A program made the position numbers and the translations under genes. This document shows positions 3,109-4,350 of a stretch of DNA of 15,233 bases, one piece after another; within the stretch, counting starts at the first letter, position 1, and each line of letters begins with the position of its first letter. The notes under the pieces are model-generated. The model saw nothing but the letters and a program-made list of their open reading frames with translations. It was not told the DNA's origin and made no database searches. Location of the stretch: positions 1-15,233 of IMG/VR virus record IMGVR_UViG_2585427789_000028, one strand, 5' to 3'. Source of the stretch: a virus (taxonomy: Duplodnaviria; Heunggongvirae; Uroviricota; Caudoviricetes).

Positions 3109-3267
3109 TCAAACACAAATTCAATTCATGAATTCACCGCCTCAATTAAACCATATTTGGTTTGCTCTTGCCTAGTGTCATTATTATTTATATAGTGACA
3201 TACCAACTTTCAAATTATAATTTATATATTTTAGGACCAAACCCAATACATTTTAAAAGGTGTAACA
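3109..3267. promoter_or_regulatory. AT-rich divergent intergenic region between the lysis cassette and the acetyltransferase; contains palindrome AACCATATTTGGTT
   Basis: About 160 bp of AT-rich non-coding sequence between divergent genes. Palindrome AACCA-N4-TGGTT at 3139-3152 and TGTCA-N15-TGACA nearby. No Q-like gene precedes the lysis genes. Confidence 0.4.
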
Positions 3268-4179
3268 ATGGAATCTAATGCACTAAAAAAAGCACGACTA
3301 TTTATAAATGACATAAAATATTGTGTTGAAAACTTTAATATCGATTCAACTTTATATACCGCTTTCAAGCCAAGTGATATTGGTGTTAAAGGAGATGAAA
3401 GCAATACAATATATGTTGCTGACGGTAAGCTTCCGGAAAAACTGATAATTGCTTTTGGAGAAAAGGCAAAAGACAGTAAAATATTTATTGGAAAAAATGT
3501 AAAATGCAGGGGATCGAGAATTGTAATAACTCACGGTGAAAGCCTTTGTTACATCGGAAATAACTCACAACTAAATAATGTAACTATGCATATATGGTGC
3601 AAATGGGATTTTGTAGTGGTTGGAGAAGGTGTATCAGTTACCTCAACAAGTAATTGGACTACTGGAATAAACCCTGGCAATCCTTGTAACGGCATTATTA
3701 TTGGTGATCACTGCCTTATGAGCCAAGAAATATCTATTAGACCTGCAGATGGACACCAAATTATCGAACTCACCACGCGAAAAGTAGTCAACGCTGCAAC
3801 ATCACCTATTATAATCGAACCATATTGCTGGATCGGACAGCGCACAGCAATACTAAAAAATGTAAGAATTGGTGCATGCTCCATCGTTTCACTTGGTGCT
3901 GTAGTTACAAAATCATGTAAAAAATTCAGCGCGCTAAGTGGCGTACCAGCAAAAGCAAGATGCATTGAAGGAAAAATGTGGCTAAGAAACAATGGGGAAG
4001 AAGCCAAGAGAATAATGCTTATGTATGAAAAAAGATTTGCAGGCACAGCAGCACAGCAGCACAGCAGCACAGCAGCACAGCAGCACAGCAGCACAGCAGC
4101 ACAGCAGCACAGCAGCACAGCAGCACAGCAGCACAGCAGCACAGCAGCACAGCAGCACAGCAGCACAGCAGCACTGTGA
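3268..4179 (+). CDS. Hexapeptide-repeat (left-handed beta-helix) acyl/acetyltransferase with a repetitive AAQQHSST C-terminal tail
   Basis: Translation shows classic hexapeptide periodicity (IIGDHCLMSQEISIRPADGHQII, IIIEPYCWIGQRTAILKNVRIGACSIVSLGAVVTKS). The gene is visibly AT-rich compared with its neighbours. The last 44 codons are the octanucleotide array. Stop TGA at 4177-4179. Confidence 0.75.
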   Translation: MESNALKKARLFINDIKYCVENFNIDSTLYTAFKPSDIGVKGDESNTIYVADGKLPEKLIIAFGEKAKDSKIFIGKNVKCRGSRIVITHGESLCYIGNNSQLNNVTMHIWCKWDFVVVGEGVSVTSTSNWTTGINPGNPCNGIIIGDHCLMSQEISIRPADGHQIIELTTRKVVNAATSPIIIEPYCWIGQRTAILKNVRIGACSIVSLGAVVTKSCKKFSALSGVPAKARCIEGKMWLRNNGEEAKRIMLMYEKRFAGTAAQQHSSTAAQQHSSTAAQQHSSTAAQQHSSTAAQQHSSTAAL

Positions 4180-4292
4180 TAAGCACAGCAGCACAGCAGC
4201 ACAGCAGCACAGCAGCACAGCAGCACAGCAGCACAGCAGCACAGCAGCACAGCAGCACAGCAGCACAGCAGCACAGCAGCACAGCAGCACAG
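4043..4292 (+). repeat. Octanucleotide tandem repeat (GCACAGCA)n in two blocks: 4043-4174 (16.5 units) and 4183-4292 (about 13.7 units), separated by TGTGATAA
   Basis: Counted directly in the sequence. Units are essentially perfect. Both blocks end in GCAC followed by (T/A)GTGATA. No stop codon in any of the three plus-strand frames across the array. Confidence 0.95.
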
Positions 4293-4306
4293 TGATATAA
4301 TTATAA

Positions 4307-4340
4307 TAATGGCCGTAATGCGCGGCCATTACATATTATT
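4307..4340. terminator. Hairpin terminator between convergent acetyltransferase and tailspike genes
   Basis: TAATGGCCG-TAATGCG-CGGCCATTA: a 9-bp stem flanked by AT-rich runs on both sides, consistent with bidirectional termination. Confidence 0.5.
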
Positions 4341-4350
4341 CATTATAGCA

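Follow-up and report, generated by a model that had tools for sequence, protein, structure and literature searches.

A prophage-borne NeuO-like acetyltransferase with a variable octanucleotide repeat is a candidate K22-to-K18 capsule converter in Escherichia coli

The virus record IMGVR_UViG_2585427789_000028 (positions 1 to 15,233, the whole stretch that was analyzed, referred to here as the window) is a piece of Escherichia coli chromosome from a 2014 draft assembly (GCA_000713785.1), in which yfgI (533-1072) is followed by a prophage inserted between yfgI and guaA. Convergent with the tail fiber gene of this prophage is a gene (3268-4179, plus strand) whose product is predicted to be an O-acetyltransferase related to NeuO, the polysialic-acid O-acetyltransferase of phage CUS-3. 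Based on its relatives, its predicted fold and its distribution, we consider it likely that this is a lysogenic-conversion gene of a Uetakevirus prophage and that its product O-acetylates the K18_K22 capsule of the host, converting K22 to K18. A recent study of capsule genotypes reported that K18 is acetylated K22, that there is 100% identity between the two gene clusters and that an acetyltransferase gene outside the locus is probably responsible, and it merged K18a, K18ab and K22 into one genotype (kTYPr, Nat Microbiol 2026; PMC13171606). A literature search found no paper describing a K22-to-K18 acetyltransferase gene, and the sequence comparisons presented here make the prophage gene the best candidate for this determinant.

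Fold and relatives of the acetyltransferase

The gene product is predicted, from homology and modeling, to be a left-handed beta-helix O-acetyltransferase of the NeuO/OatWY type. The initial annotation of the window, which was made from the sequence alone, had called it a hexapeptide-repeat acetyltransferase, and this was borne out by a Pfam Hexapep match (E 1.8e-4), by a sequence match to NeuO, by an AlphaFold2 (AF2) model and by a Foldseek search with that model. NeuO (PDB 3jqy) was the best solved relative by sequence, with an E value of 2.1e-18, and was followed by a mixed set at about 1e-6 that included the next family (4e-6), OatWY (6e-6), and maltose and galactoside acetyltransferases. 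When homology and structure were taken together, as that annotation had suggested, the closest proteins were the capsule O-acetyltransferases NeuO and OatWY, and sugar and antibiotic acetyltransferases were at least 12 orders of magnitude worse. Acyltransferases of this class are homotrimers whose active sites lie between subunits. The AF2 model, which is of a monomer and for which 43 homologs were used, had a predicted local distance difference test (pLDDT) score of 89, with short beta strands through residues 60-232. NeuO chains took ranks 1-3 and OatWY chains ranks 4-8 in the Foldseek search of the PDB, the top hits all being beta-helix acyltransferases, and superposition on OatWY (2wlg) gave a template modeling (TM) score of 0.83 with a root-mean-square deviation of 2.7 Å.

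The catalytic left-handed beta-helix core spans approximately residues 66-242 and is followed by a conserved C-terminal helix that extends to residue ~257 and then by a repeat-encoded tail. His163 and Trp188 were invariant in the 43 homologs and align with His147 of NeuO and with its conserved Trp, which we take to be Trp171. There was no match to an acyltransferase-3 domain in the Pfam scan, and the model is that of a soluble beta-helix. A blastn search (distant mode) with positions 3109-4350 against 50,697 phage records returned no match, and at the protein level the sequenced phages yielded only the neuO-type genes of CUS-3 and weak Gram-positive matches.

Distribution of the gene and the host capsule locus

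To place the gene among its hosts, 5426 complete E. coli genomes were surveyed, 11 of which carried it. The group-2 kps region 2 of strain AST205 comprises genes for a 378-residue hypothetical protein (hyp378), a bifunctional cytidine diphosphate (CDP)-ribitol synthase and a 1107-residue TagF-like polymerase, and there was no acetyltransferase among these three genes. By megablast, this region was found at an identity of at least 99% in 19 genomes and at 88% in a further locus type present in 113 genomes. All 11 gene-positive genomes were within the 19, as opposed to 0 of the 5407 others (Fisher p = 2.5e-29; 8.5e-17 after clone collapsing). The kps locus of the 11 hosts has no neu genes and carries instead the CDP-ribitol synthase and TagF-like polymerase genes, which argues against a sialic-acid substrate.

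The 19-genome locus was identified as K18_K22 (ribosyl-ribitol-phosphate) by comparing its proteins with those of its sister. The region-2 protein identities between the 19- and 113-genome loci were 96.8, 98.9 and 82.0%, matching the values for K18_K22 versus K100 in the kTYPr supplement (97.1, 98.9 and 82.1; PMC13171606), and the 113-genome locus shares its hyp378 and CDP-ribitol-synthase protein accessions with the locus that Gladstone et al. use as the K100 reference (CP013658; PMC13171598); it is this combination of matching values and a K100 sister from which the assignment follows. We note separately that the database of Gladstone et al. (PMC13171598 supplement) has no K18 or K22 entry, that an ST70 O23:H15 isolate is typed there as K100 and that KL138 is sister to KL100. 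K18_K22 strains may therefore be mis-typed in that scheme or hidden under KL138.

A related prophage was present at yfgI-guaA in 532 of the surveyed genomes (~10%). In all three of these prophages that were sampled (L021, L022 and L023) the interval between holin and tailspike was empty of genes, and the acetyltransferase gene is therefore a moron of a subset of these phages: a self-contained prophage gene on its own strand, with its own terminator, that is absent from the related phages sampled. Strain AST19 has the K18_K22 locus, lacks the acetyltransferase gene and has an empty yfgI-guaA site. H1827/12 is another strain in which this locus is present and the gene is lacking. The tailspikes of the related prophages are interchangeable, with an endosialidase in a cerebrospinal-fluid isolate and a GH28-like spike in others.

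Homologs in other bacteria

The homologs form a family of proteins of 255-292 residues with 45-72% identity, and seven of their non-prophage contexts were examined. The two closest stand in surroundings that resemble region 2 of K18_K22. Both (P0003 and P0002, 72 and 71% identical, respectively) come after a set of three genes that includes those for a CDP-ribitol synthase (75 and 73%) and a hyp378 homolog (54 and 55%), the third member being a polymerase fragment with 65% identity to the K18_K22 polymerase for P0003 and a TagF-like gene for P0002. Thus, other bacteria encode the ortholog in cis, next to a related set of region-2 genes, and E. coli has it in trans on a prophage. Three more homologs, from Aeromonas (P0009, 61%), Pantoea (P0018, 51%) and Castellaniella (P0028, 50%), are each in a kpsMT/CS/DE-type locus beside a TagF-like polymerase.

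Two further observations were made on the neighbors of the homologs. In Aeromonas caviae (L012, 8776-9474) and in a metagenome contig (L018, 8788-9444), the homolog is followed by an overlapping gene of the SGNH/GDSL family, which may encode an esterase or a second acyl-transfer partner; the E. coli prophage has no such gene. Elsewhere, a 50%-identical homolog (P0020) is located in a flagellar cluster (L033, 8001-13026) together with a TagF-like glycerophosphotransferase, a GT2 glycosyltransferase and FliB, a combination that hints at polyol-phosphate modification of flagellin.

The tail fiber

The fiber has an N-terminal anchor of the Uetakevirus type (residues 1 to ~210). The receptor-binding part of the 1024-residue fiber was found in five genomes, and an unrelated 923-residue fiber type, with ~25% identity beyond residue 210, was found in PAR and EC0026B (5230-8001 of L006 and 5069-7840 of L007 compared with 4351-7425 of the window). 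Both fiber tips were confined to genomes with the K18_K22 locus. Over residues 258-966, the 1024-residue fiber shares 25.6% identity (E 5e-65) with gp12, the neck appendage of Bacillus phage GA1, and the protein also matches the fiber of a Tetragenococcus phage. For a model of residues 190-870 (pLDDT 73), the top eight PDB matches were all receptor-binding proteins of Staphylococcus aureus phages (phi11, NF5, P68 and 80alpha), with a probability of 1.0 and a low global TM score of ~0.3. S. aureus phage receptor-binding proteins of this kind bind wall teichoic acid, and by analogy the likeness of the fiber tip fits a teichoic-acid-like ribitol-phosphate capsule. A kinship between the receptor domain of the fiber and hyp378 was also considered, prompted by a faint Phage_RBD_prop match in a Pantoea capsule-locus gene, and was rejected when BLASTP found no similarity.

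The 3' octanucleotide repeat

From nucleotide 776 onward, the acetyltransferase gene consists of a tandem array of the 8-nucleotide unit GCACAGCA, the copy number of which ranged from 1 to 52 among near-identical alleles. There was a single, degenerate unit in EC0026B (a 267-residue allele that was found on 71 contigs, more than any other among the alleles listed), 16 units in AST205, 22 in PAR, 42 in MLI121, 43 in MLI114, 50 in SW070919 and 52 in E100341; the window has 16 + 13 units split by CTGTGATAA, which is the source of its stop codon. The 929 bp beside the repeat differed by merely 0-5 single-nucleotide polymorphisms (SNPs) between alleles, with five SNPs in the acetyltransferase coding sequence, four of them synonymous, and MLI114 and MLI121 were one repeat unit apart with 0 flanking SNPs. 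The same repeat-free allele was present in five of five laboratory derivatives of EC0026B, which are uninformative on repeat instability. No repeats were found in any of the 17 homologs read, whose tails after the last helix are short and unconserved.

Because the unit of eight is not a multiple of three (three units make 24 nucleotides), every frame of the array encodes (AAQQHSST)n. The catalytic domain (residues 1-257) is kept in all three frames and the catalytic open reading frame (ORF) is intact in every allele. With a 3' flank of the window type, the product ends in ...AAQ-stop, in ...STVI-stop (two residues longer) or in a 24-residue hydrophobic read-through across the terminator, and with the PAR-type flank the read-through tails are longer (~60 residues); all such endings are present in public databases. 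The repeat-encoded tail is predicted to be disordered (pLDDT ~50). Copy number sets the length of this C-terminal tail and, modulo 3, selects among the three endings. As in contingency loci, the repeat is intragenic, has a unit that is not a multiple of three and is polymorphic in copy number among close relatives. Since the tract lies 3' of the catalytic domain, however, repeat changes are not predicted to act as a simple on/off switch of the product.

We speculate, with considerable doubt, that the slippage-prone repeat has a tuning function and arose independently of the 5' repeat of NeuO. Slippage would lengthen or shorten the disordered tail and move the product between the three endings, one of them the hydrophobic 24-residue extension, and capsule acetylation would thereby be graded or switched within a clone. 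In that case, such variation could underlie the serological split of K18a, K18ab and K22 on one identical locus. With regard to the divided array of the window, the interruption CTGTGATAA (4174-4182) resembles the array's own 3' flank, CAGTGATATAA, and for that reason the second array seems to stem from a duplication that extended across the boundary of the array; the split could instead be a mis-assembly in the 2014 draft genome.

Proposed capsule conversion and alternative explanations

In the mechanism that we propose, the soluble enzyme would use cytoplasmic acetyl-CoA to O-acetylate the ribosyl-ribitol-phosphate polymer specified by the K18_K22 locus of the host, and in serological terms K22 would become K18. 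On the model of NeuO and CUS-3, acetylation would also alter the receptor that is bound by the phage's own teichoic-acid-type fiber. A receptor-modifying, lysogenic-conversion module had been suggested in the initial annotation, and such a role is supported by the kinship with NeuO and OatWY, by the moron status of the gene, by the distribution that it shares with the fiber and by the likeness of the fiber tip to teichoic-acid-binding proteins.

Several points weigh against this assignment. The co-occurrence of the gene with the capsule locus could be explained by phage host range alone, and its signal is partly clonal, several of the hosts being one O7 lineage. The same acetyltransferase (at least 99.5% identical) is paired with two unrelated fiber tips, which might differ in recognizing the acetylated or the non-acetylated capsule. 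Neither Pfam nor NCBIfam gives an assignment above the curated cutoffs, the Hexapep match included, and the proposed oxyanion residue of NeuO, Arg137, is Gln in this protein and Ser in the homologs shown. Among the homolog contexts, one (P0020, 50%) is in a flagellar cluster beside a TagF-like gene and another (P0006, 62%) is in a three-gene island with an SGNH gene, outside a capsule locus. The window prophage is a remnant, the repeat counts were taken from assemblies (that of the window from the 2014 draft), and the reference strains for K18a (GCA_977946865), K18ab (GCA_977946875) and K22 (GCA_977947955) were not among the complete genomes surveyed.

Some of these points are shared by a different explanation, that the gene is a passenger whose restriction to K18_K22 genomes reflects the host range of the fiber and whose product acts on a small molecule or on the receptor of another phage. 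Cargo function and host range are inseparable by co-occurrence alone, and both the two unrelated fiber tips and the P0006 island would suit a passenger. We nevertheless consider it unlikely, given that a homolog is encoded in cis with related polymer-synthesis genes in other bacteria, that maltose, galactoside and streptogramin acetyltransferases score far below NeuO, and that related prophages for other capsules are without the gene.

It is also quite unlikely that the gene is a decaying, functionless remnant, with a repeat that is a microsatellite expanding neutrally at a 3' end of no importance and with some alleles that are in effect dead. The intact catalytic ORF in all alleles, the preponderance of synonymous SNPs (4/5) and the conserved promoter region argue against decay, as does the retention of the gene even where the remaining prophage has been deleted; the pure arrays of 42-52 units point to an expansion that is still under way. 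Decay would be in keeping with the loss of nearly all virion genes from the window and AST205 prophages, with read-through alleles that add 24-60 residues and with the short, unconserved tails of the homologs.

Lastly, O antigens are the classical target of conversion by epsilon15-like and P22-like phages, and there were weak sub-threshold NCBIfam matches to WcaF and WbbJ (E ~1e-9 to 1e-8), yet we regard a WbbJ- or WcaF-like action on the O antigen, at the stage of the O unit linked to undecaprenyl pyrophosphate, or on some other glycan of the envelope as very unlikely because the hosts differ in O antigen (O7 in AST205, E100341 and EC0026B; O15 in MLI114), at most 11 of 97 O7-cluster genomes carry the gene, the best relatives are capsule enzymes, and the homologs are in kps-type loci or beside a CDP-ribitol synthase. 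The target of conversion is thus most likely to be the group-2 K capsule rather than the O antigen.

Comparison with known acetyltransferases

The closest known system is NeuO, which acetylates the K1 capsule. Both enzymes are prophage-borne and have (or, for the window gene, would have) as target a group-2 capsule that is made by a locus without such an enzyme; the gene for NeuO is near the tailspike gene of CUS-3. NeuO was the top match in both sequence and fold, with the catalytic His and Trp conserved, and both genes have a variable tandem repeat with a unit length not divisible by three, so that three units encode a peptide repeat in a disordered extension. The NeuO repeat is of 7 nucleotides, and the length of its disordered peptide repeat raises activity. 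The differences are that identity is ~22-36% over the beta-helix, that the capsule is polysialic acid for NeuO and of the ribitol-phosphate type here, and that CUS-3 is a P22-like phage whereas the present one is a Uetakevirus. In addition, the 7-nucleotide repeat of NeuO is at the 5' end and encodes RLKTQDS, whereas the 8-nucleotide repeat is at the 3' end, where frameshifts change the tail alone, and encodes the uncharged AAQQHSST.

OatWY of Neisseria meningitidis serogroups W and Y (PDB 2wlc-2wlg) has the same fold, gave the best global superposition and is likewise a capsule-polymer acetyltransferase. It differs in having no repeat tract, in its sialic-acid-containing substrate and in its low identity (~20%), and its gene is chromosomal, within the capsule locus. 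The acyltransferase-3 conversion enzymes (Oac of Sf6, the O157 acetyltransferase of phiV10 and GtrC of BTP1) provide a parallel in that a prophage gene beside a tailspike gene acetylates the receptor polysaccharide, and phiV10 belongs to the same genus as the phage described here; however, those are polytopic membrane enzymes of the O antigen, in contrast to a soluble, capsule-associated beta-helix. A further parallel is found within E. coli capsule loci, where acetylation separates paired K serotypes with one backbone (K2a/K2ab and the K13/K23 candidates; PMC13171606), although in those pairs the acetyltransferase genes are inside kps region 2 and the present candidate is in trans on a prophage.

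If the proposed conversion is correct, genome-based typing could separate the K18 and K22 serotypes that are now merged, and this would be a second prophage, after that of NeuO and K1, that rewrites an E. coli group-2 capsule, in a different phage family and with a teichoic-acid-like polymer. That a hypervariable repeat is again present suggests that phages resort repeatedly to capsule acetyltransferases with such repeats and that K1 is not an isolated oddity. The likeness of the fiber to Gram-positive teichoic-acid-binding proteins hints that receptor-binding modules have been reused across phyla.

Organization of the window and of the prophage

The features of the window are listed in Table 1.

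Table 1. Features around the acetyltransferase gene in the window
Feature	Position	Strand	Basis
AT-rich spacer upstream of the acetyltransferase gene (159 bp, 28.3% GC)	3109-3267	+	Promoter-like site, Shine-Dalgarno sequence
Acetyltransferase coding sequence (303 residues in the window allele)	3268-4179	+	ORF call, homology, AF2 model
First array, 16 perfect GCACAGCA units, translated as (AAQQHSST)n	4043-4170	+	
Interruption CTGTGATAA with in-frame TGA stop (4177-4179)	4174-4182	+	
Second array, 13 units and a partial unit, untranslated in the window allele	4183-4292	+	
Hairpin, candidate bidirectional terminator between convergent genes	4307-4331	.	Fold energy
Tail fiber/spike, 1024 residues: N-terminal anchor, low-GC receptor-binding part, C-terminal S74 intramolecular chaperone	4351-7425	-	
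Lysis cassette: two holins, GH19 endolysin, DUF2514 spanin; ends at the prophage/chromosome junction beside yfgI	1290-3108	-	
DnaT-like/O-like replication gene	7983-8798	-	

The prophage is assigned, from its sequence, to the epsilon15-like phages (Uetakevirus) because its fiber shares 88% identity over the N-terminal 230 residues with that of Escherichia phage phiv142-3 and because fiber, holins, endolysin and spanin are encoded in the same order; it is not P22-like. The predicted opposite-strand, convergent arrangement of the acetyltransferase and fiber genes was confirmed, as was the presence of a hairpin, a candidate terminator for both genes, which lies between both stop codons and has a 10-bp stem (-18.9 kcal/mol, z = -3.4). 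The hairpin would be translated through in one repeat frame.

Other statements of the initial annotation held in part. The gene was said to be more AT-rich than its flanks, which is the case in comparison with the lysis genes (36.4% GC in the unique coding part versus 50.8%) but not with the adjacent 2.4 kb receptor-binding part of the fiber gene (37.3%); as the fiber tip is as low in GC as the acetyltransferase gene, the low-GC island comprises both. Within 3109-4350, the spacer and unique coding part are AT-rich, whereas 4043-4292 is a tandem repeat of 61.6% GC (8 nucleotides x 31.8 copies; Tandem Repeats Finder score 451) that had gone unmentioned in the initial annotation. An AT-rich promoter region of the gene's own had been proposed, and the low-GC spacer agrees with this; it contains a consensus-like promoter site at 3168-3196 (TTGCCT-17-TATAGT) and an AGGTG Shine-Dalgarno sequence at 3258-3262, but promoter-like sites around the gene were no more frequent than in shuffled sequence. 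The spacer differed by 0-2 SNPs among eight alleles. An Rfam scan of the whole window matched no RNA family.

A deletion junction at ~7504/7505 (in the region 7480-8001) joins the sequence upstream of the fiber gene to a truncated lambda-P homolog, which is also on the minus strand, and the window prophage is therefore considered a remnant. The junction is identical in AST205, and in both prophages nearly all virion genes have been lost and the fiber has been kept; MLI114 and E100341 retain more phage sequence upstream of the fiber, and the prophage of MLI114 is apparently complete. Within the DnaT-like/O-like gene, positions 8362-8498 contain tandem repeats of 12, 24 and 18 bp (e.g., ATCCCGTTTTTGGGATCATTCAAC x2.6), which resemble the origin iterons that lambdoid phages have inside the initiator gene.

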